From Bacillales bacterium (GTDB lineage: Bacteria; Bacillota_I; Bacilli_A; RFN20; JAISJY01), in assembly GCA_031261365.1 (NCBI GenBank), contig JAISJY010000080.1, forward strand, positions 1 through 40,493: a DNA stretch of 40,493 bases, written 5' to 3'. Both the position numbers and the translations under genes were made by a program. Below the pieces are notes generated by a model, which was given only the letters and a program-made list of their open reading frames with translations, did not search any database and was not told the DNA's origin. Positions 10,136-36,730 of the stretch are shown here, in pieces; positions within the stretch are counted from its first letter, which is position 1; every line of letters starts with the position of its first letter.

Positions 10136-10638
10136 TGTTCTCTTAAAAAGAACCTAACATAATAATTAGCACTACTTTGAATTAGTTTCATTTTTATTAC
10201 TTCTCTATCTATTTTATCAATGTCTTGTAAAAACATAAATTGTTCATTATTTAAAAACTTAATTTTATAACCATTTAAAGTATAAGTTTCTTTTAATAAA
10301 GGAATAGAAGTCGCTTCACTTTTAAACTTTAAAACACCTGCTTGACTTTTGTCAGGTCTATTGATTAAAACATTAATGCTTTGTAATATTTGTCTTTTTA
10401 TTTCTTGTTTAGTTTCTAAAGGTAAATATTTCAATTCATAATTCATAACTTTATTATCTTGGTTAAAACCTTTAACATTTTTCAAAGAGACATCAAAAAG
10501 TTCGGGAGTTTTAGAAGCAACAACCGCATTATAAAACCATTTAGCTTCTAAAAACATCATCTTTAAAAACCACAAACTATCTTGACTTAAATTAGCTTTG
10601 TTTATTTTTAAATCAATAATATTAGGGTTCTTATTCAT
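10132..10638 (-). CDS. Hypothetical protein; possible N-terminal (pre-RuvC) remnant of a TnpB/IS605-OrfB-like protein
   Basis: 168 aa. Its motifs follow the order of TnpB N-terminal regions: FLEAKWFYNAVV (like ...RFVYN..L), then GVLKFKSEATSIP (like GFPKFKSK...S), then YKIKF...EVIKMKLIQSSANYYVRFFL (like the strand pair ending ...GKYYvsi). The ORF stops where the first RuvC motif (GIDxG) would begin. Pattern recognition only. Confidence 0.4.
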   Translation of the reverse strand: MNKNPNIIDLKINKANLSQDSLWFLKMMFLEAKWFYNAVVASKTPELFDVSLKNVKGFNQDNKVMNYELKYLPLETKQEIKRQILQSINVLINRPDKSQAGVLKFKSEATSIPLLKETYTLNGYKIKFLNNEQFMFLQDIDKIDREVIKMKLIQSSANYYVRFFLREQ

Positions 10639-11722
10639 CTTTTATTCTTTCAAAAAGTTCTAAAGCTTTTTCAATAGTCTTGTCCATATCTAAATACGCA
10701 AAAGAACCTAACCTTCCTCCAAAAATAACCTTATTATCTTTTTGAGCTAAACTTAAATACTTTTGGTAAATGTTATTATTTTTTTCATCATTTATTGGGT
10801 AGTAAGCTTCTTTTCCCAGAGTCCAACTTTCTGAATATTCTTTAGTAATAAGAGTTTTAGGACCTCTTCTAAAATTAAAATGTTGGTGTTCTATAATACG
10901 GGTGAATGGTTCTTGATTAGAAGCATAATTAATGACAGCATTACCTTGAAAATCAGCAACATCTAGGTATTCGTCTTCAAATCTTAAACTTCTATAAGAG
11001 AGAGGACCAAACTTATAATCATAATATTCATCTATTTGTCCTGTGAAAATAATTTTATCATATTCAATATTATTTTTATTAGTAAAGAAATCATAATTTA
11101 ATTTAGTATCTATTCCTTCTAAAAGTTTTTCAATTAATTCAGTATAACCATTTGTCGCTATTCCTTGATAAATATCATTAAAGTAGTTGTTATCATAAAC
11201 AAATCTAATCGGTAATCTTTTAATAATGAAAGAAGGTAAGTTAATCGGAGCAGTTCCCCATTGTTTAGTAGTATAGTCTTTGATTAATTTTTCATATATT
11301 TCTTTACCAACCAATGATAAGGCTTGTTCTTCTAAATTATTAATTGTCGTGTATTTAACTTTTTCTTTTTCTAATTTTTCACGAGCCTCTTGAGGTGTTT
11401 TAGTCTTAAATAATTGATAAAAAGTATACATATTAAAAGGCAAGTTATAAAGAGTTCCTTTATAGTTGGCTAAAGGGCAATTAATGAAGTTATTAAAATT
11501 AACAAAACCATTGACATAATCCCAAACCTTTTTATTAGAAGTATGAAAAATATGAGCTCCATACTTGTGCACGATTATTCCTTCTTTATTATAAGTGTAG
11601 ATATTCCCACCTAAATGTTCTCGTTTATCAATAACTAAAACCTTTTTATTTATTTTGGTTAATTCATGAGCCATAACTGCCCCAAATAAACCACTACCAA
11701 CAATTAAATAATCATATTTCAT
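10631..11722 (-). CDS. glf: UDP-galactopyranose mutase
   Basis: 363 aa. FAD motif YLIVGSGLFGAV, then DKREHLGGN and GAHIFHT. The length and C-terminal GRLGSFAYLDMD are typical of Glf. Confidence 0.92.
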   Translation of the reverse strand: MKYDYLIVGSGLFGAVMAHELTKINKKVLVIDKREHLGGNIYTYNKEGIIVHKYGAHIFHTSNKKVWDYVNGFVNFNNFINCPLANYKGTLYNLPFNMYTFYQLFKTKTPQEAREKLEKEKVKYTTINNLEEQALSLVGKEIYEKLIKDYTTKQWGTAPINLPSFIIKRLPIRFVYDNNYFNDIYQGIATNGYTELIEKLLEGIDTKLNYDFFTNKNNIEYDKIIFTGQIDEYYDYKFGPLSYRSLRFEDEYLDVADFQGNAVINYASNQEPFTRIIEHQHFNFRRGPKTLITKEYSESWTLGKEAYYPINDEKNNNIYQKYLSLAQKDNKVIFGGRLGSFAYLDMDKTIEKALELFERIKDE

Positions 11723-11723
11723 T

Positions 11724-12743
11724 TTAATACCCTAACTTCTTTTGAACATATTTATAACCTCTATTGTAGACTATTCTTTGTAAGAAATAAGGTAGTCCAC
11801 CAATCCAACCAACCATTGTAAAGAAGAAAAGATGTCGGTATAATTTTATATCATGTTTCTTATATTCTCTTTTAATACTCCTAATTAATTTTATTTTATC
11901 TTTGGAATATTCAAAGGTTGTAAATAAAATCGCAATTAAATAGATATCTTCTATTTGTTTGAAAGTAATATTTCTTAATCCTTTGGAGAGTTTTTTAATC
12001 TCTTTATAAGAATAAGCGTAGAAAGCTTCATTTAAAACAAACAAATAATCTTTATATTTTTTAACACTTATTGAAACATTAATGGACTGGTCAGGTCTTC
12101 CAATAAAATATCTATATAAGTTAATCGGTAAATAATAAATATCTTTAACTAAAGGCATTACCATATAAGAAAACAATAAATCATCATAAGAAATCTTCAG
12201 AGGTAGGGAGATGTTAGCTTGTTTCAGAATAGATAGTTTAGCGGAAAAAGCATGTATCATAATTGGAGAAAAGACAGAGAAGTGACGGACCGAATTCCAA
12301 TTAGTTATTTGATTACTTGTCATATTAGTATATTCATGAAGAATAGATTTATTAGTATAAACATGTTCGTGAACATAATTAGTAAAGTAAATATCAATGT
12401 TTATCTTTTGATTATAATGTTCTTCTATTTTATCTAGAAAGGTTAATAAAGCTGTTTCGTCAAACCAATCATCAGAATCTAATACTTTAAAAAATAAACC
12501 ACTTCCTCTTTTTATACCTTCATTTATAGCAGAGCCATGTCCTCCATTTTCTTTATCTATGACAATAAAAATATTAGGGTAAGATAATTGATATTCTTGG
12601 GCTATCTTTAAGGTATTATCTTTGGAACCATCATTGACTATTAGAACTTCTAATTTTTCACCACCACAGAGACAAGAGTTTAAACATTTTCTTAAATATT
12701 CCTGACTGTTATAGCAAGGAACCACAATTGTTAATAGTTTCAT
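11724..12743 (-). CDS. Family 2 glycosyltransferase (candidate galactofuranosyltransferase or synthase)
   Basis: 339 aa. Motifs VVPCYNSQEYL, NDGSKDNT and VLDSDDWF (DxD). It sits 1 nt upstream of glf. Confidence 0.88.
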   Translation of the reverse strand: MKLLTIVVPCYNSQEYLRKCLNSCLCGGEKLEVLIVNDGSKDNTLKIAQEYQLSYPNIFIVIDKENGGHGSAINEGIKRGSGLFFKVLDSDDWFDETALLTFLDKIEEHYNQKINIDIYFTNYVHEHVYTNKSILHEYTNMTSNQITNWNSVRHFSVFSPIMIHAFSAKLSILKQANISLPLKISYDDLLFSYMVMPLVKDIYYLPINLYRYFIGRPDQSINVSISVKKYKDYLFVLNEAFYAYSYKEIKKLSKGLRNITFKQIEDIYLIAILFTTFEYSKDKIKLIRSIKREYKKHDIKLYRHLFFFTMVGWIGGLPYFLQRIVYNRGYKYVQKKLGY

Positions 12744-12840: not shown

Positions 12841-12846
12841 TATAAT
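12841..12846 (+). promoter_or_regulatory. -10 box TATAAT, 6 nt upstream of ATG 12853 (leaderless candidate)
   Basis: tttTGTATAAT-aagagt-ATG. The nearest -35-like hexamer, TTGCTT at 12816-12821, has a 19-nt spacer, which is poor. Confidence 0.4.
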
Positions 12847-12852
12847 AAGAGT

Positions 12853-16318: not shown

Positions 16319-19300
16319 ATGAAGAAGTTATTTGTTGTTGCTACGACCGTTACATTATTGTTAACAGGTTGTAAGGGACCAGATGCAAGTTCAAGTCCGG
16401 TTGTTAGTTCGACGGATTCGAGTGTTGTTAGTTCTAGTCCGGTAGTTGTTACTCCAGGTGTTCCATCTTATGAAACTGTTGTTACCCCAACAGGAACAAA
16501 GACTGGTCATTTGGAAGCAGATGGAAAGTTTTATGCTGACTATTCAAGTATGGCTGAAGTTGCTGAAGCAGGCCATGAAATCGCTGTTCAAGTTGCTGAA
16601 GAAGGAGACGCTTTACTTAAAAATGACGGAGCTCTTCCGTTGTCTGAAAAGGAAAGAAAGATTACTTTATTTGGTGTTAATTCAGATGCTATATTTACAG
16701 GTGGTGGTGGTTCTGGTTCTGGTTCGTTAGGAGCTAATGGAATTACACATGTCACTTATGAACAAGGATTTATTGATGCTGGTTTTAAAGTAAATCCAAA
16801 AACTATGGGTATTTATAAAGATACTACTGCTACTTTAGAACCTGATATTAGTGTTTATAGTCCTGCAGTTGTTAACACTTATAAATCATACAATGATGCT
16901 GCTGTTATTTTATTAAGTAGAACAGGTCAAGAGTTTAGTGACCCTCCTCTACATGATGTTCCTGGACATAGTAATCCAGATGACCATTATTTGCAATTCC
17001 AAGATAATGAAATTGATTTAATAAAACATGTTAAAGCTCATTTTGACAAGATAATTGTTGTTTTAAACACTTCTAATACAATTGAAATAGGTGGTTTAAT
17101 GGCTCCTGTTTCTAGTGAATTAGGTGTTAATGCTGTTCTTTGGGTTGGTATGACAGGTAATGATGGAGCTGCTGCAATTGGTAGAATTATTGCTGGTGCA
17201 GTTAATCCTTCTGGACATACTTCTGATATTTGGCCTGTAAACTTAAAACAAGATCCAACTTGGTTTAACTTTGGTGATAATAGTCAAATTAAAGATGGTT
17301 CAGGAAATAGACTTAATACTAACTATTATTTAGCCGATGGTGAAACTCTTGCTAAAGGTGCTGCCCCTGGTGGTGCATACTCAGGTAATGGTGGTTTTGA
17401 AGATTTAGAATACCGTGAAGGTATTTATATGGGTTATAGATATTATGAAACAAAAGCTACTCTTTTAGGATCAGCTGGTGAAGCTTGGTATGCTTCTCAA
17501 GTTGCAGCTCCGTTTGGACACGGTTTATCATATACAACTTTTGATTGGACTTTACATTCAGGTATTGATCCAACAGGTTTAATTGATAATGCTCGTGGTA
17601 CAGTTACTCTTAAAGTTGATGTTACTAATACAGGTGATGTAGCTGGTAAAGATGTTGTTCAACTTTATTCAGAACTACCTTATACAACAGGTGGTATTGA
17701 AAAAGCAAGTAGAAATTTAGTTGGTTTTGCTAAAACAGGTTTATTACAACCAGGCGAAACTGAAACTGTTACTGTTCAAATAGTTGCTCAAGATTTAGCT
17801 TCATTTGACTATAATGATTTAAATAATAATAGTCATAAAGGTTATGAATTAGAGGCTGGAGATTATATTTTACACGCTTCTCGGAGTAGTCATGATTCAG
17901 TTCTTACTATTACTAGAACTGTTCAAACAACGATTAATATTGATACTGATTACACTTCTGGAAATGTTATAAAACCATTATTTTCTGATGGTAGATATAA
18001 TACAGTTAATGATAATCTTGCTGAAAAAGGTATGACTAGGGCTAATGGTTTAACACTTCCTGGTACTCCTTCAATTGCTGAAAGAATTATGTCTGAAGAA
18101 GAATTAGCTAGAAGGTCATCTGAAGCATCTTTTACAAGTTCAATGGATAAAACCACTGACCCTTGGTATGCAAGTGCTGTTCCAGCAACTTGGAATCAAT
18201 TAGAGACTCGTACAGCTGGAACTCAATCACCAATTTTATTATCTGAGATGTCTGGAGTTTCTTATGTTCCGCCTAAATTAGAAAACGGAACTGTTACTCT
18301 TACTAATACTGTTGATAATAATAAATGGGAAACATTTATGAATCAATTAACCGCTTCTGAGTTAAAAGATTTAGTTGGTAGAGGTAGTTTTAGTACTTAT
18401 GCTGTGGCTGGTATTGGTAAAGAAACAGCAGTTGATAATGATGGTCCTATGCAATTAAAAGCAAGGTCTGGTGGAGCTGTTGGTACATTATGGCCAGTTC
18501 TTCCTATTCAATCTGCAACTTTTGATACTGAATTAGCAACAAGAATTGGAAATACAATTGGTAATGAATCATTGTTTATAAAAGTTACCGGTTGGTATGG
18601 ACCTGGAGTTAATACTCACCGTTCTGCTTTTGGTGGAAGAAACTTTGAATATTATTCACAAGATGGAGTTCATGCTGGTTTAATCGCTGCTGCTGTTATT
18701 GGAGCAGCTACTGAAAAAGGTTTGAATTCTTATATGAAGCATGTTGTTTTAAATGACCAAGAAACAGATAGATACAATACTGATACATGGTTAACTGAAC
18801 AAGCATTGAGAGAGATTTACACTAGACCATTAGAATATGCTATTAAAGTTGGTAATTGTTCTGGTTTCATGACTGCTTTCAATAGAATTGGTGACCAAAG
18901 TGCTTCTGTTAATTATGCTTTGTTAAATAGTTTATTAAGACACGAATGGGGATTCCAAGGTGAAGGCGTTACTGATATGTATTCAACAGGTTTCCGTGAT
19001 GTTGATCAAATGATTAGAACAGGTAATAATATGCCTTTAGGAACTAGTTTACCAGAAGGTACTTGGTCTCCTGCTAGCAAAACTATGTTAGTTAGAGCTC
19101 AAGGTGCTGCTCCGACTGACCCTGAAACAGTTCCAAGTCCTACTCATTACTATAATTTAAGAAAATCTGCTCAAGAAATTCTTTATGTTTATGCTAATAA
19201 TAATAGTATGTTACAAGGAATTAAAAACAACCTTACTTTTGAAGCTACTGTCAGAAAAGGTACAATTAATAATTCTGTTGTTGATGTTAGTAGTCTTGGT

Positions 19301-19840
19301 TCAACCGATGTTAGAATAACTCCAACTACGGCTGGTGCTGCTCTTTTACCTGCTGGAGTAACATTTAATTCAGGTACTGATGCTTTTGTTGCTGCTGCTA
19401 ACTCTGCTGCTCCTGTTGGTGTATACAATATTCCGGTTGACATTGTTATTGATGGTTGGGTTAAGAGAAGTGGAGTTGTTACTTTGAATGTTATTGAACC
19501 TGTTACTTATGCTGGAACAGATTTAAGTAGTGTAGTTCAAGGAAGTAGTATTACTGGTCAATTTGCTTCTACTTACTTTGTACTTGGTGGTCAATTTATA
19601 CCTAGTGGAACTGCTTTTGTAGATATTACAGGCGTTAGATATTTATTACAAAGTCTTCCAGCTGGTTTAACAGGTTTGACTATTACAGAATCTGGTGCTT
19701 TATCTGGTATTCCTAGTGGTGCTCCTGGTACTTATACTTTGACTGTTAGAGTTGCTGTTAGTTACCTCAGAACAAATATGGGAACTACTTCTACTGCAAC
19801 AACTAATATTGATAGACCGTTTACTGTTGTTATTGTTTAG
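16319..19840 (+). CDS. Surface lipoprotein, GH3 glycosidase with permuted domain order plus C-terminal Ig-like (He_PIG-type) repeats
   Basis: 1173 aa. Lipobox LLLTGC is followed by a Ser-rich linker. Domain order:
- GH3 C-domain (LLKNDGALPL at ~16,620; GGGGSGSG; PFGHGLSYTTF at ~17,525).
- Fn3-like (VTNTGDVAGKDVVQLY).
- GH3 N-domain (GRNFEYYSQD at ~18,640; KHVVLNDQE at ~18,740; WGFQGEGVTD with Asp codon 18974-18976).
- Two LPAG...G.Y-type Ig-like repeats.
GGGAGG Shine-Dalgarno. Confidence 0.88.
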   Translation: MKKLFVVATTVTLLLTGCKGPDASSSPVVSSTDSSVVSSSPVVVTPGVPSYETVVTPTGTKTGHLEADGKFYADYSSMAEVAEAGHEIAVQVAEEGDALLKNDGALPLSEKERKITLFGVNSDAIFTGGGGSGSGSLGANGITHVTYEQGFIDAGFKVNPKTMGIYKDTTATLEPDISVYSPAVVNTYKSYNDAAVILLSRTGQEFSDPPLHDVPGHSNPDDHYLQFQDNEIDLIKHVKAHFDKIIVVLNTSNTIEIGGLMAPVSSELGVNAVLWVGMTGNDGAAAIGRIIAGAVNPSGHTSDIWPVNLKQDPTWFNFGDNSQIKDGSGNRLNTNYYLADGETLAKGAAPGGAYSGNGGFEDLEYREGIYMGYRYYETKATLLGSAGEAWYASQVAAPFGHGLSYTTFDWTLHSGIDPTGLIDNARGTVTLKVDVTNTGDVAGKDVVQLYSELPYTTGGIEKASRNLVGFAKTGLLQPGETETVTVQIVAQDLASFDYNDLNNNSHKGYELEAGDYILHASRSSHDSVLTITRTVQTTINIDTDYTSGNVIKPLFSDGRYNTVNDNLAEKGMTRANGLTLPGTPSIAERIMSEEELARRSSEASFTSSMDKTTDPWYASAVPATWNQLETRTAGTQSPILLSEMSGVSYVPPKLENGTVTLTNTVDNNKWETFMNQLTASELKDLVGRGSFSTYAVAGIGKETAVDNDGPMQLKARSGGAVGTLWPVLPIQSATFDTELATRIGNTIGNESLFIKVTGWYGPGVNTHRSAFGGRNFEYYSQDGVHAGLIAAAVIGAATEKGLNSYMKHVVLNDQETDRYNTDTWLTEQALREIYTRPLEYAIKVGNCSGFMTAFNRIGDQSASVNYALLNSLLRHEWGFQGEGVTDMYSTGFRDVDQMIRTGNNMPLGTSLPEGTWSPASKTMLVRAQGAAPTDPETVPSPTHYYNLRKSAQEILYVYANNNSMLQGIKNNLTFEATVRKGTINNSVVDVSSLGSTDVRITPTTAGAALLPAGVTFNSGTDAFVAAANSAAPVGVYNIPVDIVIDGWVKRSGVVTLNVIEPVTYAGTDLSSVVQGSSITGQFASTYFVLGGQFIPSGTAFVDITGVRYLLQSLPAGLTGLTITESGALSGIPSGAPGTYTLTVRVAVSYLRTNMGTTSTATTNIDRPFTVVIV

Positions 19841-19852: not shown

Positions 19853-19892
19853 AACCCCAGGACTTAATTGTCTTGGGGTTATTGTTTATTTT
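19853..19892 (+). terminator. Rho-independent terminator after the first GH3 gene
   Basis: AACCCCAGGA (19853-62) pairs with TCTTGGGGTT (19871-80), giving a 10-bp stem with one G-U. The loop is 8 nt, followed by ATTGTTTATTTT. Confidence 0.7.
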
Positions 19893-19905
19893 GAAAGGAA
19901 GAAAA

Positions 19906-21267
19906 ATGAAACACTTATTTAAAAAAATCTTAACAATTATTATATGTATATTTGCTTTTACGGGCTGTACTGAACCTAATGGTAGCAGTTCAAATCCTAA
20001 AGCATCTGAGGGAGGAGTTCAAGTTTCTAAGATAGAAGTTAGTAAAGAGCCAGACAAGGTGGCTTATTATATTGATGAAGTATTTGATGCAACAGGTGGA
20101 GAAGTTACAATTACTTATACGGATCAGACTGATGAAGTTTCTCCTCTAACTGATTCTAAGTTTGTGATAGACCCTGTTAATACAACTAGTGCTGGTCAAA
20201 AAACAGTTATCGTTAAATATAGTGGCAAACAAGATACATTTAGAATAACAGTTTCTATTGAACAAATAGATGTTATTTTTAATTACAATTATAGCGGAGC
20301 TCCTACACCTACAACGGTCAAGACTAATAAAAATAGTCCGATTACAAAGCCAACTGATCCAACGAGAAGTGAATATACTTTTGAAGGTTGGTATACCGAT
20401 GTTATTTGTACTTCAGCTTATAATTTTGCTTTAAATGTTGTTAGTAGTTTTACTTTATATGCTAACTGGTTAGAAGAAGGTACTTATTACAATGCTAATT
20501 TTAGTTACAATTATTATGGTTGTAATCCTGATTCCTTTACTTTAAAAGTAAAAGAAAATCTTACTGTTGCCAGACCTTCAATTAGTCCAACCAGAGTTGG
20601 TTATGCTTTTGTTGATTGGTATGGAGATATAGAAGGAACAACATTATATAATTTTAGTTCAACTTTTACAGGTGATAAAACTATTTATGCTAAATGGAAT
20701 AGAACAAGTAGTGGAATTGTGAATTATTTATTTGAAGCCGAAGGGACAAGTTTAAATGGTAAAGCAGGACCTGGTTATTCTGGCTATTGTGGTGGAACTG
20801 ATATGATTGTCTTTGATGACCATGTTGGAGCAAGTAATAACCGTTTTGTTTCATATTTATATGCAAGTGGGTCAAGTTTAGAATGGTATATTGCTAGTGA
20901 TATTGCAGTTTCAGATTTAACATTTGTGGCTAGATTATCAGCTGAGTTTGGGAATATGACCTTTACTCCTGACAACTATGTCATTATTTTGAATGGTAAT
21001 GAATTAAATTATGGAACTATTGCTATTACTGATGTGCCAGGCGGAGGGGCTAAAGAGTTTGCTGATTTTACAATTGGTACAAGTTTGACTTTGGTTAAAG
21101 GTTTAAATAAAATTGAGTTTATTACAGATAATGATGATAATCCTTTAGGGGCTGGAGCTGGAACTATGCAAGCAACTGCTCCGATTATAGATTGTATTAA
21201 ATTATCAACTACTGCTGTTTTGATTTGGGATGATAATTACCCATCAACATCGCTTATATATAGTTAG
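19906..21267 (+). CDS. Surface lipoprotein: Big_3-like Ig domain, two Listeria-Bacteroides (Flg_new) repeats, CBM6/35-like domain
   Basis: Start moved to ATG 19906 (GAAAGGAAG Shine-Dalgarno); the track's TTG 19873 lies inside the terminator stem. Lipobox FAFTGC. Domains in order:
- Big_3-like: KIEVSKEPDKVAYYIDEVFDATGGEVTITY.
- Flg_new repeats: P.R..Y.F.GWY......YNF.......LYA.W occurs twice.
- CBM6/35-like: C-terminal FEAEGTSLNG...LVKGLNKIEF...APIIDCIKL. Confidence 0.78.
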   Translation: MKHLFKKILTIIICIFAFTGCTEPNGSSSNPKASEGGVQVSKIEVSKEPDKVAYYIDEVFDATGGEVTITYTDQTDEVSPLTDSKFVIDPVNTTSAGQKTVIVKYSGKQDTFRITVSIEQIDVIFNYNYSGAPTPTTVKTNKNSPITKPTDPTRSEYTFEGWYTDVICTSAYNFALNVVSSFTLYANWLEEGTYYNANFSYNYYGCNPDSFTLKVKENLTVARPSISPTRVGYAFVDWYGDIEGTTLYNFSSTFTGDKTIYAKWNRTSSGIVNYLFEAEGTSLNGKAGPGYSGYCGGTDMIVFDDHVGASNNRFVSYLYASGSSLEWYIASDIAVSDLTFVARLSAEFGNMTFTPDNYVIILNGNELNYGTIAITDVPGGGAKEFADFTIGTSLTLVKGLNKIEFITDNDDNPLGAGAGTMQATAPIIDCIKLSTTAVLIWDDNYPSTSLIYS

Positions 21268-21298: not shown

Positions 21299-24229
21299 AT
21301 GAAATTTATTTTTAAGCATATACGGACACGCGTTTGGTTTATCGTTTCAATTATATTAATACCATTATTGGTAGTCGTTTCAATTGTGACAACGACCACT
21401 TTATATACTCTATTGAATATTGTCATGCCAGGCGGTGGAGAAAGAGCAGTTTATAGTGAAGATGCTCCTGCTATTTATGAAATGGATTATCCTTCTAAAG
21501 AGAAAGCTTATGAACACGGCTATGATTTAAATACTTTAATAAGTGAAGAAGGTTTTGTCTTACTTAAAAATAAAAATAATGCTCTTCCAATTAGCAAGGA
21601 AAAAGCTAGGGTTAGTGTTTTTGGTAAGAACAGTGTTAATATTATTTATGGTGGTTCAGGTTCAGGTGGTGCTTCTACTAAAGATGCAATAGACTTATAT
21701 CAAAGTTTAAAAGATGCTGGTTTTGTGACTAATCCTAAATTAAAAGCTTTTTATGAATCAAAAGATTCTGGTAAGGAAAGACCGGGTAATCCAACTAATT
21801 TAGATAATGGTAATAGTATTTCTATGCCAACAGCTGAAACACCTCAAAGTAATTATACTAATGAGGTTAAAAATAGTTATAATGATTATAAAGATGTGGC
21901 TTTAATTGTTTTTTCTAGAATAGGTGGGGAAGGTTTTGATTTACCAAGAAACATGAGACAAATAGATGGGGCTAGAAATGAAACAGACCATTATTTGCAG
22001 TTAGACCAAAATGAAACAGATTTAATTCAAAGTGTTTGTGAAGTTGGTTTTGAAAAAGTTGTGGTTATTATTAATAGTGCTGCCGCTTTAGAGTTGGGCT
22101 TTTTAACTAATCCTCTTTATTATGCTTATAATTCAAAAATTGATGCAGCTATAAATATCGGTTTTCCGGGTATTTCTGGGATGAAGGCTTTGGGTAGAAT
22201 CTTAAATGGTGAAGTTAATCCTTCAGGAAGAACTGTTGATACTTATGCTTATGATTTCAAAGCTAATCCTACTTTTGTTAACTTTGGTGATAATAATGAA
22301 AATGCAGGGGATTTATATACTGTTGACCATTTACCTTCTAATCAAAAACGGAGTTTCTATTTTGTTGATTATGAAGAAAGTATTTATATGGGTTATAGAT
22401 ATTATGAAACTAGAGGGGCAACCGATGGAGAAGAATGGTATCAAAACAATGTTGTTTATCCATTTGGCTATGGATTATCTTATACTACTTTTAATTGGGA
22501 AGTTGTTGATAAAACTCAAATAGAAAATGTAGCGATAAGTGCTTTAAATGATTATACAGTTAAAGTTAAAGTTACAAATACAGGAACGGTGGCAGGTAAG
22601 GATGTTGTTGAATTATATGGTCATGCTCCTTATGAAACAGGTAAAATAGAGAAGTCCGATAGAGTTTTATTAGATTATGCTAAAACAGCTTTATTACAAC
22701 CTGGTGCTTTTGAAATAGTAGAGTTAAATTTTAATCCTTATTATTTAGCTTCTTATGATTATAATGATGCTAATGGTAATTCTTTTAAAGGGTATGAATT
22801 AGATAGTTCAAATAATTATTTCTTATATGTTAGTAAAAATGCTCATGAAGTAGTAGCAAGTATTCCTTTTAAAGTTACAACTAATATTCGTTTTGAAAAT
22901 GATCCAACGACCGATTACCCTGTTGTTAATTTATATAAAGATAATGATAATCCTTATTTAGATTCTGATATTGAATTAGAAACTTTATTATCAAGAGGAG
23001 ACTGGACTAATACTTGGCCAGTTGCTCCAACTAATGAGGAAAGAAAATTAAGTGGTGATTTGTATAGTGCTTTAGCTAATACAGAACATAATAATCCTAA
23101 TGTTGATGATTACTATGAGATGGAGTATCCTTTATTTGATGAAGAAGTCATTTATACTTTAAGAGATTTATTAAGTGATGAAGATGGAGCTTTACAAAGT
23201 TTTGTTAATTATGATGATGAAAGATGGGAAGATGTTTTAAACTCTGCTAATATGAGTGAGATGATTCATTTATATAATTTTGGAGCTTTTAAAACTGATA
23301 AATTATCAAATATTAATAAACCTAAAACAAATGATACTGATGGACCTGCTGGTTTTGTTAATTTTATGGATGGGACAACTTTTTATGGGACTGTTGCTTA
23401 TTGTTCTGAAACAGTTTTAGCTTCTACTTTTTCTAAAGAGTTAGCCGAGGAATATGGTAAATCTATTGGTAATGAAGGGCTTTGGGGTAATGCTAAAGGA
23501 GACAAAATGCCATATAGTGGTTGGTATGCTCCTGGTGTTAATTTACACCGCTCCCCTTTTGGTGGCAGAAACTTTGAATACTATTCAGAAGATGGTTTCT
23601 TAAATGGTTCAATGTCTGCTAATGTTATTAAAGGAGCTCAAAGTAAAGGTGTTTATTGCTTTATTAAACACTTTGCTTTAAATGAACAAGATACTCACCG
23701 TTCCTTGAGTGGAAATAGTTCTTGGGTGACAGAACAAGCTATTAGAGAAATATATTTAAAACCTTTTGAACTTGCTGTTAAAGAAGGCGGAACAAGAGCT
23801 TTAATGACTGCCTTTAACCGTATTGGTACTAAATGGGTTGGTGGTGATTACCGTTTGTTAACAGAAATATTAAGAAATGAATGGGGCTTTAGAGGAAGTG
23901 TTATTTGTGATTTTAATACGGTTCCTTCTTATATGAATGGTAAACAAATGGCGTATGCAGGTGGTGATATTAATTTAGCAACAATGGCATCTTCTTCTTG
24001 GAATGTTGATACAAGTGATCAAGCGGATATTATTGTTTTAAGAAATGCGATTAAGAATGTTTTATATACAGTTGTTAATTCTAATGCTATGAACGGAGAA
24101 ATTATCGGTTATAGAATGCCATTGTGGACAGTGGGATTAATAATTATAGATGTAGCAGCAGTGGTTGCTTTAGGAACTTGGGGTACTTTGGCAATACTCT
24201 CTTTAAGAAAGAAAAAGGAGCTAGAATAG
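21299..24229 (+). CDS. Membrane-anchored (N- and C-terminal TM) GH3 glycosidase with permuted domain order
   Basis: 976 aa and a clear paralog of 16319-19840. N-terminal TM (VWFIVSIILIPLLVVVSIV). Then LLKNKNNALPI at ~21,575, GGSGSGG and PFGYGLSYTTF at ~22,480. Then Fn3-like (VTNTGTVAGKDVVELY). Then GRNFEYYSED at ~23,575, KHFALNEQD and WGFRGSVICD (Asp codon 23909-23911). C-terminal TM (LWTVGLIIIDVAAVVALGTWGTLAIL) plus RKKKE. Confidence 0.88.
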   Translation: MKFIFKHIRTRVWFIVSIILIPLLVVVSIVTTTTLYTLLNIVMPGGGERAVYSEDAPAIYEMDYPSKEKAYEHGYDLNTLISEEGFVLLKNKNNALPISKEKARVSVFGKNSVNIIYGGSGSGGASTKDAIDLYQSLKDAGFVTNPKLKAFYESKDSGKERPGNPTNLDNGNSISMPTAETPQSNYTNEVKNSYNDYKDVALIVFSRIGGEGFDLPRNMRQIDGARNETDHYLQLDQNETDLIQSVCEVGFEKVVVIINSAAALELGFLTNPLYYAYNSKIDAAINIGFPGISGMKALGRILNGEVNPSGRTVDTYAYDFKANPTFVNFGDNNENAGDLYTVDHLPSNQKRSFYFVDYEESIYMGYRYYETRGATDGEEWYQNNVVYPFGYGLSYTTFNWEVVDKTQIENVAISALNDYTVKVKVTNTGTVAGKDVVELYGHAPYETGKIEKSDRVLLDYAKTALLQPGAFEIVELNFNPYYLASYDYNDANGNSFKGYELDSSNNYFLYVSKNAHEVVASIPFKVTTNIRFENDPTTDYPVVNLYKDNDNPYLDSDIELETLLSRGDWTNTWPVAPTNEERKLSGDLYSALANTEHNNPNVDDYYEMEYPLFDEEVIYTLRDLLSDEDGALQSFVNYDDERWEDVLNSANMSEMIHLYNFGAFKTDKLSNINKPKTNDTDGPAGFVNFMDGTTFYGTVAYCSETVLASTFSKELAEEYGKSIGNEGLWGNAKGDKMPYSGWYAPGVNLHRSPFGGRNFEYYSEDGFLNGSMSANVIKGAQSKGVYCFIKHFALNEQDTHRSLSGNSSWVTEQAIREIYLKPFELAVKEGGTRALMTAFNRIGTKWVGGDYRLLTEILRNEWGFRGSVICDFNTVPSYMNGKQMAYAGGDINLATMASSSWNVDTSDQADIIVLRNAIKNVLYTVVNSNAMNGEIIGYRMPLWTVGLIIIDVAAVVALGTWGTLAILSLRKKKELE

Positions 24230-24230
24230 T

Positions 24231-27200
24231 ATGGGAAAGTATCTAATTAAACATCAAGATATTCTTGATAAGCTGACATTAAAACAAAAAGCTAATTTTA
24301 CATCGGGGAAGAACTTTTGGGAGACATACAATATTAAAGAATTAGGTATTCCTTCTATCTTTTTATCTGATGGACCTCACGGGGTTAGAAGACAAGCTAC
24401 TAAGGCTGATAAAGCAGGTTTAAATGTTTCTTTACCTGCTACTTGTTTTCCAACTGCTTCGGCTTTGTCTAATACTTTTAATGTTGATTTATTAAAAGAA
24501 ATTGGGACGGCTTTAGGAGAAGAAGCTAAAATACAAAAAGTTGGAATATTATTAGGACCAGGCATGAATATTAAGAGAAATGCCAAATGTGGTCGGAACT
24601 TTGAATACTATTCAGAAGACCCTTATCTAGCTGGTAAACTAGCTTCTAATCTTATTTTAGGTATTCAAGATAACAATTTATCAGCCTGTGCTAAACATTT
24701 TGCTTTGAATAATCAAGAGTTAAATAGAATGTGTAATGATTCTGTTTGTGATGAAAGAACAATGCGGGAAATATATTTACAACCTTTTGAAATGTCTGTT
24801 AAAGAAGGAAAAGTAAAAGCGATTATGAGTTCTTATAATAAAATAAATGGGGAATATGCCAATGAGAATTATCATGTTTTAAGAGAGATATTAAGAGATG
24901 ATTGGGGCTTTGAAGGTGTGGTAGTTTCAGATTGGGGTGGAGATGATGATAGGATTAAAGCTTTATTAGCCAGCTCTGACCTTGAAATGCCTGGTACTAA
25001 AGGCGATTCTGTTATTGATGTTGTTAATAGTGTTAATAATGGTGAATTACCTTTAAAAGTTTTAGATGAATCTGTTGATAGAATATTAGACCTTGTTTTA
25101 GAAGAGAAAGAAAGTGAGAAGAAAGAGTTTGATGTAGAAGCTCATCATAATATTGCTAGAAAAGCTGCAGTTGAATCTATAGTCTTATTAAAAAACGATA
25201 GCATATTACCTTTAAAAGAGAACACTAAGGTCGCGATTATTGGAGACTTTGGCAAAAAACCTCGGTATCAAGGAGCAGGTTCAAGTCAAGTTAATCCGAC
25301 TAAATTAGATTTACCTCTAGAGGTTATAAAAGATTACTCACTTAATTTTGTTGGTTATGAGAGAGGTTATAAAAGATTTGGTGGAACAAGTAAAGGTTTA
25401 ATTAAGTCTGCTCTTGAATTAGCTAGAAAAGCTGAAGTTGTTTTACTTTATATTGGCTTAGATGAAAGAAGTGAAGCTGAAGGTCAAGATAGAGCAAATT
25501 TAAAATTACCAGAAAGTCATATTCAATTATTTAAAGAATTATTAAGTGTTAATAAAAATATTGTTGTTATTAATTCTAGTGGAAGTGTTGTTGAATTAAA
25601 AGAGTTTAAAAATGCTAAAGCTTTATTAAATAACTTCTTAGGAGGACAAGCAGGAGCTAGAGCTTTATTAGATGTTTTAGTGGGTAAAGAAAATCCAAGT
25701 GGTCGTTTATCAGAAACTTATCCTATTGATTATGAAGCTTGTTCTGTTAAAGATTACCCAAGTCCTTTAAAAGCTATTTATAAAGAAGGCTTATATGTTG
25801 GTTATAGATATTATGATACTAATAATATTTCTGTTCTTTATCCTTTTGGTTATGGTTTAAGTTATTCAACTTTTACTTATTCTAATTTAAAAGTAGATGA
25901 AGTTAGTGTTTCTTTAACATTAGAAAATACTTCAGAAGTTGATGGTTATGAAGTAGTTCAATTATATGTTGGTAAGAGTAAATCTAATGTTTATAGACCT
26001 AAAAAAGAGTTAAAGGGTTTTATTAAAGTCTTTATAAAGAGCCATCAAAAAGTTAGAGTTGTTATACCTTTTGATGATTATACTTTTAGATATTTTAATA
26101 CTGAAAGCAATACTTTTGAAGTTGAAAAAGGAGTTTATGAAGTTTATGTTGGCAGTAATATTCAAGACATTCATTTAACAGGTTCAATAGAAAGAGATGG
26201 AGTTGAAGTAATTAGTAAGAAAGATGTTTTACCAACTTATTATGCTGGTGATATTAAAGATGTTAGCAAAGAAGAATATGAAGTTTTATTAGGGCATCAA
26301 TATCAAGAAGGTAAAATAGATTTTGTTAAAAAGAATAGAATTGTGGTTGATAGGAATACTCCTATTGCTCATTTAAGATATGCTAAAGGTTGGACAGGTA
26401 GAGCTATAAATGGTTTATTAAGATTTGCTTTGGGACTTTTGAAGTTATTTAAGAAAAACAAATTAGTAGTGGAATTAAATATGGGTATTTATAATACACC
26501 TATTAGGTCTTTATCTAGAGCTAGTGGTGGTATGTTCCTTTATAAACAAATAGATGGTTTAGTAGAAATGTTTAACGGACACTTCTTTAAAGGATGTAAA
26601 ACATTTAGAAAAGCTAAGAAAGAGTTTAATAAGATTAGGAAACCTGAAATTAAATTAGAAAAAGAATTAATTAAGAAAACTGAGAAGGAAGAAAAACTTC
26701 AAAGATTAGCTCCTGAATTAGAGAAATGGAAATCTAGAGAAAAGGACAATGTTTTTAAAAAGTTCTTTAAGTGGTGGGTACGCTTCTTCATTATTCATAA
26801 GAATTGGTGGCAATTCTTAAAGTTTTGGTTAGTTTCTAATGCTGTTACTATTTTCCAAGTTTTAGCCAAGTTAGTTCTTGACCCTCTATTCGCGAGTACT
26901 AATTTAGCAACTACTTCTTTCCAATGGTTACAAATAGGGACAAGGGCTAATTCAGGAGGAACTCCTTTCTTTATCTTTGATTACCCAGCCCATAAGATAG
27001 GTGAATATTTAGGGGCAAATGGAACAGTTATTGCAGGTATTGGTGGTGGTTTAGCTTTGTTTTTATCTTATTATGTTGGAGTAGCTATTGCCCAAGTAAT
27101 AAACTTCTTTGTGCAAAGGAATGTTACTTTTAAATCAAAAGGAAATCCTTGGTATCAAGCTATGTGGTATGCTATAGCTTTTGTTGGTATTTTGTTCCTT

Positions 27201-27380
27201 TCTCAAATAGTTTTGGGAACTGTTGGAGCTCCTGCTTATGATTTGTTTACAAGATGGTTTGGTGGTGTTGGCAAGACAGTTTATGATATTATTATTTCAG
27301 GATTATTAATACCGACTATTAGTTTCTGGGTATTCTTCCCGATATTTAAGATTATCTTTCCAGAAGGTAAAAAAGAATAA
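24231..27380 (+). CDS. Cytoplasmic canonical-order GH3 beta-glucosidase-like enzyme fused to a C-terminal GtrA-like 4-TM module
   Basis: 1049 aa with no signal peptide. GH3 part: SDGPHGVR, GRNFEYYSEDP at ~24,600, KHFALNNQE, VVSDW (Asp codon 24930-24932), LLKNDSILPL at ~25,195, PFGYGLSYSTF at ~25,860, then Fn3-like. A Lys/Glu-rich linker follows. Four hydrophobic helices occupy ~26,780-27,377, with GtrA-like signatures QFLKFWLVSNAVTIFQ and AQVINFFVQRNVTFKSK. Confidence 0.8.
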   Translation: MGKYLIKHQDILDKLTLKQKANFTSGKNFWETYNIKELGIPSIFLSDGPHGVRRQATKADKAGLNVSLPATCFPTASALSNTFNVDLLKEIGTALGEEAKIQKVGILLGPGMNIKRNAKCGRNFEYYSEDPYLAGKLASNLILGIQDNNLSACAKHFALNNQELNRMCNDSVCDERTMREIYLQPFEMSVKEGKVKAIMSSYNKINGEYANENYHVLREILRDDWGFEGVVVSDWGGDDDRIKALLASSDLEMPGTKGDSVIDVVNSVNNGELPLKVLDESVDRILDLVLEEKESEKKEFDVEAHHNIARKAAVESIVLLKNDSILPLKENTKVAIIGDFGKKPRYQGAGSSQVNPTKLDLPLEVIKDYSLNFVGYERGYKRFGGTSKGLIKSALELARKAEVVLLYIGLDERSEAEGQDRANLKLPESHIQLFKELLSVNKNIVVINSSGSVVELKEFKNAKALLNNFLGGQAGARALLDVLVGKENPSGRLSETYPIDYEACSVKDYPSPLKAIYKEGLYVGYRYYDTNNISVLYPFGYGLSYSTFTYSNLKVDEVSVSLTLENTSEVDGYEVVQLYVGKSKSNVYRPKKELKGFIKVFIKSHQKVRVVIPFDDYTFRYFNTESNTFEVEKGVYEVYVGSNIQDIHLTGSIERDGVEVISKKDVLPTYYAGDIKDVSKEEYEVLLGHQYQEGKIDFVKKNRIVVDRNTPIAHLRYAKGWTGRAINGLLRFALGLLKLFKKNKLVVELNMGIYNTPIRSLSRASGGMFLYKQIDGLVEMFNGHFFKGCKTFRKAKKEFNKIRKPEIKLEKELIKKTEKEEKLQRLAPELEKWKSREKDNVFKKFFKWWVRFFIIHKNWWQFLKFWLVSNAVTIFQVLAKLVLDPLFASTNLATTSFQWLQIGTRANSGGTPFFIFDYPAHKIGEYLGANGTVIAGIGGGLALFLSYYVGVAIAQVINFFVQRNVTFKSKGNPWYQAMWYAIAFVGILFLSQIVLGTVGAPAYDLFTRWFGGVGKTVYDIIISGLLIPTISFWVFFPIFKIIFPEGKKE

Positions 27381-27453: not shown

Positions 27454-27497
27454 AATTATTGCGACAGTGTTGCAATATTCTTTTATAGTAGAAAAAG
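27454..27497 (+). repeat. Direct repeat copy A (contains 19-bp imperfect palindrome ATTGCGACAGTGTTGCAAT, 27458-27476)
   Basis: 38/44 identical to 28587-28630 by hand alignment, in the same orientation. It lies downstream of both convergent genes. Confidence 0.9.
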
Positions 27498-34475: not shown

Positions 34476-35327
34476 ATGTTAGTAACATTAAAAAAAGTAT
34501 TAGAATATGCTGAAAAAAATAAGGTTGCAATTGGGTCATTTAATACCCCTAATTTAGAAAGTTTAAGAGCAGTTATTGAGGCTAGTGAACAATTAAAACA
34601 ACCTGTTATTGTTCAATTTGCTCAGTGTCATGAAAGTTTAACCCCTTTAAAAATAATCGGTCCGATTATGGTAGCTTTGGCTAAATCAGCTAAAGTAGAT
34701 GTCTGTGTTCATTTAGACCACGGGGAAACTTTGAAATATTTAAAACAAGCCCTAGAAATAGGATTTACTTCAATTATGTATGATGGTTCTAATTTAAAAT
34801 ATGAAGAAAATGTTTTAAATACTATAAAAGCTGTTGAAATGGCTCATAAATATGGTGCTTCAGTAGAAGCTGAACTTGGAAGTATGGGAGCTAGAGAATC
34901 TGGTTCTAGTGAAAGTATTAATGATACTACTAAAATATATACTGACCCTCTTTTATCAAAAGACTTTATTGAGAGAACCAAGATAGATGCTTTGGCTTGT
35001 TCTTTTGGAACAGTTCATGGTATTTATTTAACTAAACCTCAATTAGATTTTAATATTGTTAGAGAAATCAGAGAAATAAATAATTTAATTCCTATAGTTA
35101 TGCATGGTGGTTCAGGTGTTTCAAAAGAAGATTATTTTAAGGCTATTGAGGCTGGAGTAAGAAAGATTAATTATTTTACTTATATGGATTTAGCAGGTGG
35201 TTCTTTTATTAAAGAAATAGATTTAACTAAGAATGTTTATTTTTCTAATATAAGTTTAGAGGCTAAAGAAAAAATGAAATTAGATGTTATAAGAGCAATG
35301 ACTTTATTTGCAAGGAGGGAAAAATGA
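34476..35327 (+). CDS. Class II ketose-bisphosphate aldolase family (FbaA/GatY/KbaY-like)
   Basis: 283 aa. Motifs AIGSFN, VIVQFAQ, HLDHG, MYDGS, HGGSG. Confidence 0.85.
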   Translation: MLVTLKKVLEYAEKNKVAIGSFNTPNLESLRAVIEASEQLKQPVIVQFAQCHESLTPLKIIGPIMVALAKSAKVDVCVHLDHGETLKYLKQALEIGFTSIMYDGSNLKYEENVLNTIKAVEMAHKYGASVEAELGSMGARESGSSESINDTTKIYTDPLLSKDFIERTKIDALACSFGTVHGIYLTKPQLDFNIVREIREINNLIPIVMHGGSGVSKEDYFKAIEAGVRKINYFTYMDLAGGSFIKEIDLTKNVYFSNISLEAKEKMKLDVIRAMTLFARREK

Positions 35328-36730
35328 GAAAAACAACATTTGCTTTATGTTTTGGTAATCGAGGTTTTATGCCTGGTGAGTTAATATTAGAAGCTAGAAA
35401 AGATTTAGTAAAAGTTTTAAATGAGGAAGGCTATGATTATATTTTAATGGAAGAAAAAGCCACTAGATATGGAGCTATAGAAACGAGGGCAGAAGGTTTA
35501 TTATATGCTAAATGGTTAAAAGAACATCAAGGACAATATGATGGAGTTATCTTTTCCATGCCTATATTTGTTGATGAAAACGGAGCAATAACAGCTTTAC
35601 AAGATGCTGGTGTCCCTATTTTAATGCAAGCCTATCCAGATGAAATAGGTAAATTAGGATTTGCTACTAGAAGAGATGCTTATTGTGGAAAGTTTTCAGT
35701 TACTGATGTTTTCTCGCAATATAAAGTACCTTTTACAGTTTTAAAGCCTCATGTTGTTCACCCTTTATCAAAAGCATTTCGGGATAATTTAAGAGACTTC
35801 TCTGCTATTTGTGCGGTTGTTAATGGTATGAAAAGGTTTAATGTTGGTTGTATTGGGGCGAGGACAACTGCTTTTAAGACTGTTCGTTTTGATGAAATAG
35901 CCTTACAAAAATATGGTATTAATGTGGAATCTTTTGATTTATCAGAATTAATTGATTTTGTTAATAAGTTAAAAGATGATGATAAAGAAGTTTTAATTAA
36001 AGAAAAAGTTTTAGAAAACTATTCTAATTGTTCTCTTGTTCCTAAAAAGAACTTGAATACTTTAGCTAAGATTAGTGTGGTTATTGATAAGTATATTAAA
36101 GATTATAATTTGGATGCTATTACTTTAAGATGTTGGAATGAAATGGAAACTATTTTAAGAGTTTGTCCTTGTGTTTTATTAAGTGAATTAAACGATAGAG
36201 GCATTGTTGCATCTTGTGAAATAGATTTATGTTCGGCAATTACAATGAGAGCGATGAATTTAGCTTCTCAACAACCAACAGCTGTTTTAGATTGGAATAA
36301 TAATTATGGAGATGATGAAGATAAAGTTATTTTATTCCATTGTGGTCCAGTGGCTCAAAGTTTAATGAGCGAAAAGGGTTGTGTCACGGAGCATAAGATG
36401 TTTGCTAAGAATGATTCTGGTTCGGGTTGGGGAACTAATGAAGGAAGAATTAGAGATTTTCCAATGACTTTTTCTAACTGTAAAACGGAAGATGGAAAGT
36501 TAATTGTTTATGTTAGTGAAGGCGAGTTTACTAAAGATGTTATTGAAAAAGGTTTCTTTGGTTGTGGGGGAGTTGCTTTAATTTCTAATTTACAAGATAA
36601 GTTAATCTTTTTAGCAAGAAATGGTTTTAAACATCATACATCAGTAGGTGTTGGACATCTTAAAGCTGTTTTAGAAGAAGCTTTTAAAACTTATTTAAAA
36701 TATGATGTTGTTTCAATTGAGGTAAAATGA
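35324..36730 (+). CDS. L-fucose/L-arabinose isomerase-family sugar isomerase
   Basis: 468 aa. The N-terminal FALCFGNRGFMPGEL, the length and the overall pattern resemble COG2407-type isomerases. ATGA overlap with the aldolase gene. Confidence 0.65.
   Translation: MRKTTFALCFGNRGFMPGELILEARKDLVKVLNEEGYDYILMEEKATRYGAIETRAEGLLYAKWLKEHQGQYDGVIFSMPIFVDENGAITALQDAGVPILMQAYPDEIGKLGFATRRDAYCGKFSVTDVFSQYKVPFTVLKPHVVHPLSKAFRDNLRDFSAICAVVNGMKRFNVGCIGARTTAFKTVRFDEIALQKYGINVESFDLSELIDFVNKLKDDDKEVLIKEKVLENYSNCSLVPKKNLNTLAKISVVIDKYIKDYNLDAITLRCWNEMETILRVCPCVLLSELNDRGIVASCEIDLCSAITMRAMNLASQQPTAVLDWNNNYGDDEDKVILFHCGPVAQSLMSEKGCVTEHKMFAKNDSGSGWGTNEGRIRDFPMTFSNCKTEDGKLIVYVSEGEFTKDVIEKGFFGCGGVALISNLQDKLIFLARNGFKHHTSVGVGHLKAVLEEAFKTYLKYDVVSIEVK

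Follow-up and report, generated by a model that had tools for sequence, protein, structure and literature searches.

Domain organization of the fusion protein

The window analysed here is the whole 40,493-nucleotide (nt) stretch of contig JAISJY010000080.1 from a Bacillales bacterium (assembly GCA_031261365.1). It carries on its forward strand an open reading frame (ORF) in which a glycoside hydrolase of family GH3 is followed by a module of four transmembrane (TM) helices resembling GtrA proteins. Across related genomes, this GH3/GtrA-like association is a very common operonic pair, and its covalent fusion is rare.

The ORF starts with ATG and runs for 1049 codons without interruption, as the initial annotation of this stretch had stated, and it comprises a GH3 core, a helical extension, a linker and the membrane module (Table 1). 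Three Pfam domains cover the GH3 core, with Glyco_hydro_3 at residues 70-287, Glyco_hydro_3_C at 317-545 and Fn3-like at 574-643. The first two lie well above their curated thresholds (127.7 bits against a cut-off of 27 for PF00933, and 158.5 bits against 31 for PF01915). According to hydropathy, the first hydrophobic segment of the protein begins at residue 862; since nothing hydrophobic precedes it, the GH3 part has no signal peptide, and the earlier description of a complete, canonical and signal-less GH3 is correct.

Table 1 Features of the fusion ORF and of its gene neighbourhood in the window
Feature	Position (nt)	Strand	Evidence
Whole fusion ORF, 1049 aa (GH3 + extension + linker + GtrA-like 4-TM module)	24231..27380	+	ORF scan, Pfam
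GH3 N-terminal barrel domain	24231..25130	+	PF00933, E 8e-37
GH3 C-terminal alpha/beta sandwich	25179..25865	+	PF01915, E 3e-46
Fn3-like domain	25950..26159	+	PF14310, E 4e-19
Subfamily-specific all-helical C-terminal extension, residues ~684-804	26280..26642	+	kept in unfused GH3 relatives; AlphaFold2
Lys/Glu-rich junction linker, residues 805-848	26643..26774	+	12 K + 9 E in 44 residues
GtrA/DPMS-TM-like module (putative)	26775..27377	+	hydropathy, AlphaFold2, PF04138
Module TM1	26814-26882	+	
Module extracytoplasmic beta-hairpin insert	26883-27023	+	
Module TM2	27024-27110	+	
Module cytoplasmic motif AQVINFFVQRNVTFKSK	27090-27140	+	
Module TM3	27156-27224	+	
Module TM4 with ISFWVFFPIFKIIF	27282-27356	+	
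UDP-galactopyranose mutase (Glf), directly downstream of GT2	10631..11722	-	
GT2 glycosyltransferase, 339 aa, no TM, divergent from GH3 cluster	11724..12743	-	
LytTR response regulator	14196-14906	+	
Multi-TM GHKL histidine kinase	14906-16210	+	
Second permuted GH3, 1173 aa, lipoprotein	16319..19840	+	MKKLFVVATTVTLLLTGC; signal LLTGC
Surface protein, Big_3 + Listeria-Bacteroides repeats, same operon	19873..21267	+	
Circularly permuted GH3, 976 aa, TM at both ends, catalytic part outside	21299..24229	+	
Terminator-like hairpin downstream of fusion ORF	27457..27477	+	consensus scan only

The putative nucleophile Asp234 is found in the motif VVVSDWGG (residues 230-237; nt 24918-24941), and the Glu of SEAEGQDR (residues 414-421; nt 25470-25493) is the putative acid/base in its loop. 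Both motifs, DWGG and E-x-E-G-x-D-R, are nearly invariant among 104 relatives; the catalytic roles of the Asp in S-D-W and the Glu in the E-G-x-D-R loop are assumed here from general knowledge of GH3 enzymes. From end to end, the core matches cytoplasmic beta-glucosidases of known structure, including Clostridium thermocellum BglB (7MS2, E 2e-182), PSTG1 (8J9F, E 2e-177; also 9LQL) and the Bifidobacterium adolescentis enzyme 5WAB (range of E 2e-182 to 1e-164), and it shares their catalytic motifs. Judged from its sequence, the GH3 part is thus predicted to be a signal-less cytoplasmic exo-beta-glycosidase of the BglB/PSTG1 type. Known enzymes of the type, unlike the window fusion, are soluble, free-standing proteins. 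With this GH3, the best-scoring NCBIfam equivalog models get no further than roughly half of their cut-off (676 of 1300 bits); the best of them is a bifidobacterial arabinopyranosidase, whose family we take to act on ginsenosides.

Behind the Fn3-like domain lies an extension without any Pfam family. It is conserved in GH3 relatives of about 800-840 aa whose genes are unfused, and it contains the motifs MG..N.P.RSLSR..GG and MFNGHFFKG as well as an amphipathic helix, GLLRFALGLLKLF (residues 728-740; nt 26412-26450). The AlphaFold2 (AF2) model of residues 655-812, based on 104 sequences, is all-alpha (pLDDT 84.5). For AF2, the two C-terminal parts of the protein were modelled separately, because short GtrA-like sequences were put in the wrong place, at ~20% identity to the query, when MAFFT aligned full-length sequences. 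By Foldseek, the one part of the extension with a counterpart among solved structures is its first half, which is similar to the C-terminus of PSTG1 (8J9F/9LQL; probability 0.72-0.99 but E 0.15-1.2, over seven PSTG1 chains). A phmmer search of the extension against PDB sequences returned noise only. The second half (MG..P.R.LSR..GG...MFNGHFFKG), together with the 4-TM partner, is specific to the GH3 subfamily of the window and does not occur in BglB/PSTG1-type enzymes.

The closest named relative of the membrane module comes from Evansella caseinilytica, where a 211-aa GtrA-like protein (P0023) is encoded 30 nt downstream of an 806-aa GH3. Residues 6-804 of the window protein are 48% identical to this GH3 and residues 849-1045 are 44% identical to the 211-aa protein, in collinear order. 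Since the alignment to the Evansella GH3 runs through residue 804, residues 690-804 belong to the GH3-subfamily extension and only residues 805-848 form the junction. The initial annotation had placed the whole segment behind residue ~690 between the two parts; the amphipathic and Lys/Glu-rich stretches that it described are both present, at residues 728-740 and 805-848, but the first belongs to the extension. The linker is absent where the two genes are separate (as in locus L007), and residues 805-848 appear to stand in place of the stop/start junction of two ancestral genes.

A divergent GtrA-like membrane module

Four hydrophobic helices, already recognized in the initial annotation, were found by hydropathy (residues ~862-884, 932-960, 976-998 and 1018-1042) and again in the AF2 model. 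They are flanked by regions rich in Lys and Arg, with 16 such residues ahead of TM1 and three in the TM2-TM3 loop, which by the positive-inside rule predicts an N-in/C-in topology and therefore a cytoplasmic GH3. The catalytic part would accordingly be tethered to the inner face of the membrane by the 4-TM module. The AF2 model of the module (121 sequences; pLDDT 88.5, pTM 0.80) consists of four long helices with a beta-hairpin inserted between TM1 and TM2 on the outer side.

The assignment to GtrA is weaker than the initial annotation had put it. The window copy scores 21.3-23.1 bits with PF04138 (profile positions 25-83 of 117), under the gathering score of 26.1 bits. Each of its 40 aligned relatives, however, gives a PF04138 match at E<=0.01. 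Several are above the threshold, at 27-33 bits and with profile positions 24-111 covered, and relatives that are 44-50% identical to the window copy score 26.6-32.6 bits. A search with the last 359 residues returned 970 database relatives (E down to 2.5e-43), nearly all free-standing and 200-250 aa long, and many of them carry precomputed PF04138 matches or the name ‘putative flippase GtrA’. By contrast, the direct comparisons with known GtrA proteins and structures were not significant. No significant match of the model was found in the PDB with Foldseek, where two DPMS entries were best by TM-score (TMq 0.37, probability 0.28), and among the viral models of BFVD there was no GtrA match and nothing significant. 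The family profile matched no PDB sequence, and neither hmmsearch nor hhalign linked the family significantly to phage SfV GtrA. With a profile of 30 SfV/enterobacterial GtrA sequences, hhalign gave a probability of 1.7% (E 0.03), in what is a weak test as that profile is shallow (76-92% identity to SfV GtrA), and the alignment was collinear only on the FFANARFTFK and SAIS motifs.

The module family is conserved at 43-50% identity across Actinomycetota, Bacillota and Spirochaetota. It has invariant intramembrane polar residues in TM1 and TM2, with the TM1 pattern QF..F..SN..T..Q, and the invariant motifs GGGL, AQVINFFxQRxxTFK and SFWVFFPIFK. An exhaustive phmmer search of 1.84 billion representative sequences gave only 297 matches to this family, which indicates that the clade is narrow and well separated from ordinary GtrA proteins. 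On these grounds, the module probably represents a divergent and distinct GtrA/DPMS-TM-like subfamily rather than a bona fide GtrA.

The cross-phylum identity, the invariant polar residues and motifs, and the confident AF2 model show that the module is more than a generic anchor, in agreement with the initial annotation. This bears on the simplest explanation of the association, that the 4-TM protein merely localises the glycosidase and has no binding or translocation activity of its own. Fusion and adjacency show proximity only, and an anchor role has been proposed for the GtrA-family protein Rv3789 (PMC7389260). Nevertheless, the conservation across phyla, with invariant polar residues within the membrane and a structured external beta-hairpin, is far above the need of an anchor, and the GH3 already has an amphipathic extension of its own. 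A pure membrane tether is therefore improbable.

In many GtrA-like genes of Acholeplasmataceae and rabbit-gut Clostridia, TM4 is followed by an extra Ala/Lys/Glu-rich tail of about 120-170 residues, which is cytoplasmic and probably a coiled-coil. It was seen in L007 (13468-14547) and in about 35 further loci (ORF segments of 330-430 aa), and is absent from the window copy.

Reality and recurrence of the fusion

A missed stop codon or a frameshift in the assembly could have merged two separate genes. This possibility is raised by the species-representative genomes, in which all other pairs (138 of 138) are unfused. Moreover, the sole twin of the window, Logan contig L001 from a second assembler, is 100% identical in DNA and may derive from the same reads, so it gives no independent read-level support.

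However, an orthologue from a different sample (P0241 in L157; unrelated run SRR16842390) is also a single ORF, encoding 1045 aa. It is 53% identical to the window protein over the full length in one high-scoring segment pair, and its junction, linker included, is homologous to that of the window. The gene order around it is also like that of the window, with a LytTR regulator, a kinase, a permuted GH3, the fusion and a MocA-type oxidoreductase. A second fusion with an unrelated junction was discovered in a Clostridiales metagenome-assembled genome (P0121), where it is followed by a GT28-like glycosyltransferase (GT) and Glf. The third one (P0242; L158 290-1591) encodes 433 aa, in which a long Lys-rich linker joins the extension to the 4-TM module and the GH3 catalytic core is missing; its contig is only 2.1 kb long, and the upstream neighbour lies on the opposite strand.

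In all, there are three independent fusion lineages. Covalent joining of the parts on at least three occasions is classical evidence of physical and functional interaction and makes an artefact very unlikely. With the orthologue and the two independent fusions, the single-gene status assumed in the initial annotation is supported, the artefact explanation is largely refuted and deserves almost no credence, and the ORF is a true two-gene fusion maintained by selection.

Co-occurrence of GH3 and GtrA-like genes across genomes

In the loci found by searching with the whole protein (n=69), both genes are adjacent yet separate, except in the twin contig of the window itself. For an unbiased view, genomes were scanned with two motifs of the 4-TM family as the only seeds, which yielded 80 loci in four phyla, from Demequina, Cellulomonas, Microbacterium, Bifidobacterium, Actinomyces, Paenibacillus, Lacrimispora, Clostridium, Treponema, Acholeplasmataceae and others. 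Co-occurrence in these loci was counted with tblastn, because naive ORF clustering produced antisense shadow ORFs in loci of high G+C.

A GH3 gene lies directly upstream of the GtrA-like gene on the same strand in 66 of 72 loci, and none of 70 further pairs is fused. Conservation of the pairing extends over Actinomycetota, Bacillota (Acholeplasmataceae among them) and Spirochaetota. In 62 of 70 pairs, the GtrA-like gene has a possible start at -8 to +30 nt from the GH3 stop, when the candidate nearest to that stop is taken as the start, a choice that favours short gaps. Among annotated junctions, the two genes overlap by ATGA in L007 and are 1 nt apart in L155. The two genes are thus adjacent and probably translationally coupled in most carriers.

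The initial annotation had described the architecture as one that matches no described system. We found no description of the GH3/GtrA-like combination in the searchable full-text literature, and queries on GtrA with GH3, beta-glucosidase or Glf, and on Celf_0468 or PSTG1, gave nothing relevant; GtrA and GH3 are co-mentioned in two papers, in unrelated contexts. The cassette therefore appears to be undescribed in searchable literature, while the association itself, as a gene pair, is common and only the fusion is rare.

In two loci the partner is a different glycoside hydrolase (GH). The GtrA-like gene start is overlapped by a GH43 gene with a CBM6-like end in Bifidobacterium sp. (L111; 6379-7965 and 7962-8561) and by a GH2 gene (GalA/GalB-like) in Litchfieldia salsa (L131; 5542-7908 and 7905-8564). 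The helical extension was sought in both partners and is absent from both. Because of these overlaps, the theme of a glycoside hydrolase docked on a GtrA-like protein extends beyond GH3.

In 46 of 74 loci, the GtrA-like gene is immediately followed by a GT2 gene, which is orthologous to the GT2 of the window. Within 8 kb of the GtrA-like gene, any GT was present in 43 of 60 loci (42 GT2 and one GT28-like), and Glf in 22 of 60 to 26 of 70 loci (37%). A LytTR regulator and a GHKL kinase are near the GtrA-like gene in 52 of 70 loci. When the ORFs of 63 loci were clustered, conserved families were GH3, GtrA-like, histidine kinase, response regulator, GT2 and Glf only; there was no conserved importer (ABC, PTS or MFS) among them, importers being sporadic, and no conserved multi-TM GT-C family.

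Variants of this arrangement were also observed. In L115 (8564-9712) and L156 (2793-4037), the GT2 is replaced by a GT28_C-like GT (MurG/UgtP-type C-terminal domain) directly downstream of the GtrA-like gene, and in L156 Glf follows it. In Lacrimispora and Hungatella (L117, L120, L122, L129, L130, L134, L138, L140, L141 and L146; ~8700-9750), there is no GT behind the pair, which is followed by a conserved protein of ~219-260 aa without Pfam family; genes for a Y-family polymerase, a SRAP peptidase, a MarR regulator and an ABC exporter lie further downstream.

Gene neighbourhood of the window

The fusion ORF is the last of a gene cluster that also encodes a two-component system, two permuted GH3s and a repeat-containing surface protein (Table 1). 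The stop of the 976-aa permuted GH3 lies 1 nt ahead of the fusion ORF. In the permuted enzymes, the domain order is GH3_C, Fn3-like, GH3_N, and TM segments at both termini were found in 84 of 100 complete permuted-GH3 homologues (related loci L002-L155, four phyla). An exo-glycosidase with a membrane anchor at each end is unusual. The Big_3/Listeria-Bacteroides-repeat protein is rarely kept elsewhere (2 of 70 loci). Taken across the loci, the conserved cassette consists of a glycoside hydrolase, a GtrA-like protein, a GT with or without Glf, an outer, membrane-hugging GH3 and a membrane-embedded sensor kinase.

No importer is encoded in the gene cluster of the window; this, the two surface GH3s and the nearby Glf and GT2 genes are as the initial annotation had listed them. 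It had also proposed that the module is a conduit, and this can be put as follows: the 4-TM protein, probably as an oligomer, would take in soluble beta-linked oligosaccharides generated outside the cell and pass them straight to the cytoplasmic GH3 docked on it. The lack of a conserved importer at the loci, the conserved polar residues lining TM1 and TM2, the tight coupling of a glycosidase to a membrane protein, and the GH43 or GH2 partners in two loci would all be in keeping with it. On the other hand, GH3 enzymes of the BglB type are generally exo-acting and release monosaccharides, so that a second, cytoplasmic exo-glycosidase would be redundant. The conduit also leaves GT and Glf without explanation, several loci have their own ABC sugar importers nearby, and the module keeps a GtrA-family signature that is associated with lipid-linked sugars. 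We consider import through such a conduit unlikely. The second proposal of the initial annotation, trimming of lipid-linked sugar at the inner leaflet, fits the context better, because a GT2 or GT28-like GT is adjacent, Glf is frequent and the outer GH3s are double-anchored.

Other genes of the window were also inspected. Downstream of Glf on the reverse strand (8573-10638) are four small genes, encoding a 168-aa protein, a GNAT acetyltransferase, a 150-aa probable lipoprotein and a 157-aa membrane protein, and a 238-aa membrane protein is encoded upstream of the two-component system (12838-13554, forward strand). These five genes have no homologue among 70 related loci and, except for GNAT, no Pfam or NCBIfam family. 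A protein of 563 aa with an N-terminal hydrophobic segment (2052-3743, forward strand) shows a weak, sub-threshold Peptidase_C39_2 match (21.8 bits). At 35324-38142 (forward strand), a protein with only the C-terminal domain of L-fucose isomerase stands beside an FGGY-family sugar kinase and a class II aldolase; these genes may form a small unit of sugar catabolism with no relation to the GH3 cluster. RecA shares at most 69-71% identity with that of uncultured low-GC Bacilli (Coprobacillus CAG:826 and metagenome-assembled genomes of Erysipelotrichaceae and Acholeplasmatales), which places the host, whose G+C content is about 29%, in this group.

Comparison with known systems

Like the proteins of the GtrA/GtcA/Rv3789 family (GtrA of phages SfV and SfX, GtcA of Listeria and Bacillus; PF04138), the window module has four TM segments in a predicted N-in/C-in topology, an N-F-F-x-x-R-x-x-T-F-K-type motif at the cytoplasmic end of TM2, and a PF04138 match in all relatives tested. 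A genomic link to GT2 and Glf is shared as well, in that Rv3789 lies in the arabinogalactan cluster together with a GT2 and Glf. In contrast, the window module is about 200 aa long, compared with 120-150 aa in the GtrA family, and has a 47-residue external beta-hairpin between TM1 and TM2; its clade is much more conserved than ordinary GtrA proteins, to which phmmer draws no connection. The partner differs too, as it is a glycoside hydrolase here and a GtrB-like polyprenyl-phosphate GT plus a GT-C enzyme in the GtrA family. Whether GtrA proteins are scaffolds (as in the recruitment of AftA by Rv3789, acting as an anchor) or flippases is debated, and flipping is biochemically unproven even for canonical members, no activity having been reconstituted (PMC7389260).

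The type III DPMS of Pyrococcus furiosus (5MLZ, 9EP0) is similar in that a cytoplasmic carbohydrate-active domain is joined via amphipathic helices to a GtrA-like 4-TM domain, for which binding and perhaps also flipping of the lipid-linked sugar have been proposed (PMC12992685). However, its catalytic domain is a GT2 synthase and that of the window protein a GH3 hydrolase, and the structural match is not significant. The three-component systems GtrA/GtrB/GtrV and CsbB/GtcA/YfhO resemble the window locus in combining genes for a cytoplasmic GT2, a GtrA-type protein and a carbohydrate-active enzyme on the extracytoplasmic side. Their GT2 carries C-terminal TM helices and the GtrB/DPMS signature, whereas the window GT2 has neither, and their outer enzyme is a GT-C transferase instead of a GH3 hydrolase. 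Furthermore, an additional cytoplasmic hydrolase is the most constant partner at loci of the window type, unlike in these systems.

A possible make/flip/trim cycle

Our preferred explanation, still a tentative one held with somewhat less than even confidence, is that a cytoplasmic glycosidase is docked on a GtrA-like handler of lipid-linked sugars and takes part in a make/flip/trim cycle for a beta-glycosylated lipid. In this cycle, the inverting GT would make a beta-linked head group on the cytoplasmic face, with UDP-Galf as the donor where Glf is present. The GtrA-like module would bind or translocate the amphipathic lipid-linked beta-glycoside and serve as a docking platform for its enzymes, and the docked retaining GH3 would remove or edit the head group at the inner leaflet. 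After the flip, the membrane-hugging permuted GH3 might trim the head group at the outer leaflet, so that the whole would constitute a cycle for a membrane glycolipid or a lipid-linked glycan. The eukaryotic glucosylceramide cycle, in which a synthase, a glucosidase on the cytosolic face and a lumenal glucosidase act on one lipid, is formally analogous.

Several observations suggest a lipid-linked substrate. A GT is near the pair in most loci and has been replaced non-homologously by a GT28_C-like enzyme in L115 and L156, and Glf recurs in over a third of the loci. The outer GH3s are double-anchored or lipidated, and neither an importer nor a GT-C family is conserved. In addition, the nearest characterised GH3s include PSTG1 and the arabinopyranosidase family presumed to be active on ginsenosides. 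PSTG1 is described as an ‘STG-hydrolyzing’ glucosidase and was crystallised with heptyl thioglucoside. If STG means steryl glucoside, as we assume from the title of the PSTG1 entry, the nearest characterised GH3s have in common that their glycoside substrates carry a large hydrophobic aglycone.

A number of points weigh against such a cycle. A lipid-linked substrate is neither known nor predicted for the cassette, and the kinship of the module to bona fide GtrA is a borderline Pfam profile match only, the Foldseek (PDB and viral models) and hhalign comparisons being not significant. The GT2 of the window is not of the GtrB/DPMS polyprenyl-phosphate type: it scores 29.6 bits with the ArnC model (cut-off 529), has no TM segment, and is matched best by WaaH-like, chondroitin-synthase-like and TarS-like proteins. 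In about 28% of loci, notably those of Lacrimispora, the pair has no GT nearby. Catabolic GH genes and sugar ABC genes often surround the loci, which speaks for a catabolic role, and making and hydrolysing one glycoside in one place needs a regulatory rationale.

Some of these points would be accommodated by the scavenging of exogenous amphipathic glycosides, for instance plant, fungal or dietary glycolipids, steryl glucosides or saponins. These would partition into the outer leaflet and be trimmed by the double-anchored GH3, after which the GtrA-like protein would flip them inward and the docked GH3 would free the last sugar for catabolism. The carriers are saccharolytic bacteria of gut, plant biomass or digesters, and the catabolic surroundings of the loci, the pairs without GT, the lack of a conserved classical importer and the bulky hydrophobic aglycones associated with the nearest characterised GH3s would suit this route. 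Yet it does not account for the GT2 or GT28-like GT directly downstream in most loci or for the frequent Glf, and inward flipping by a GtrA-type protein is without precedent, so that we regard scavenging as rather unlikely.

A more speculative scheme, which we consider very improbable, is a reversed Gtr pathway, in which a lipid carrier would bring sugars across the membrane with no need of nucleotide activation. The outer retaining GH3 would move a glycosyl residue from an external beta-glycan to an outer-leaflet lipid (e.g. polyprenyl phosphate), the GtrA-like protein would flip the lipid-linked sugar inward and the docked cytoplasmic GH3 would release the sugar. Conversely, the cytoplasmic GH3 might load the carrier from cytoplasmic beta-glucosides by transglycosylation. 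Such a pathway would explain why GH3s stand on both sides of the membrane, why the GtrA signature has been retained and why an importer is missing; the GT would be a primer or repair enzyme only.

Biological implications

The natural ‘Rosetta stone’ fusions and the tight operonic pairing indicate that this GtrA-like clade works in contact with a cytoplasmic glycoside hydrolase. GtrA-family proteins occur everywhere in cell-envelope glycosylation, and the cassette offers a concrete system in which the question of scaffold versus flippase can be addressed; its carriers include Bifidobacterium, Cellulomonas, Paenibacillus, Lacrimispora, Treponema and Acholeplasmataceae, some of them cultivable and tractable. 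The cassette may reveal a new membrane glycolipid cycle, or else a new route for amphipathic glycosides in bacteria of the gut and of plant biomass. It also suggests a natural context for the many bacterial GH3s that are known only by their activity on ginsenosides or steryl glucosides. The GH3/GtrA-like pair points to a widespread membrane-bound sugar-processing module in many Gram-positive and spirochaete genomes.

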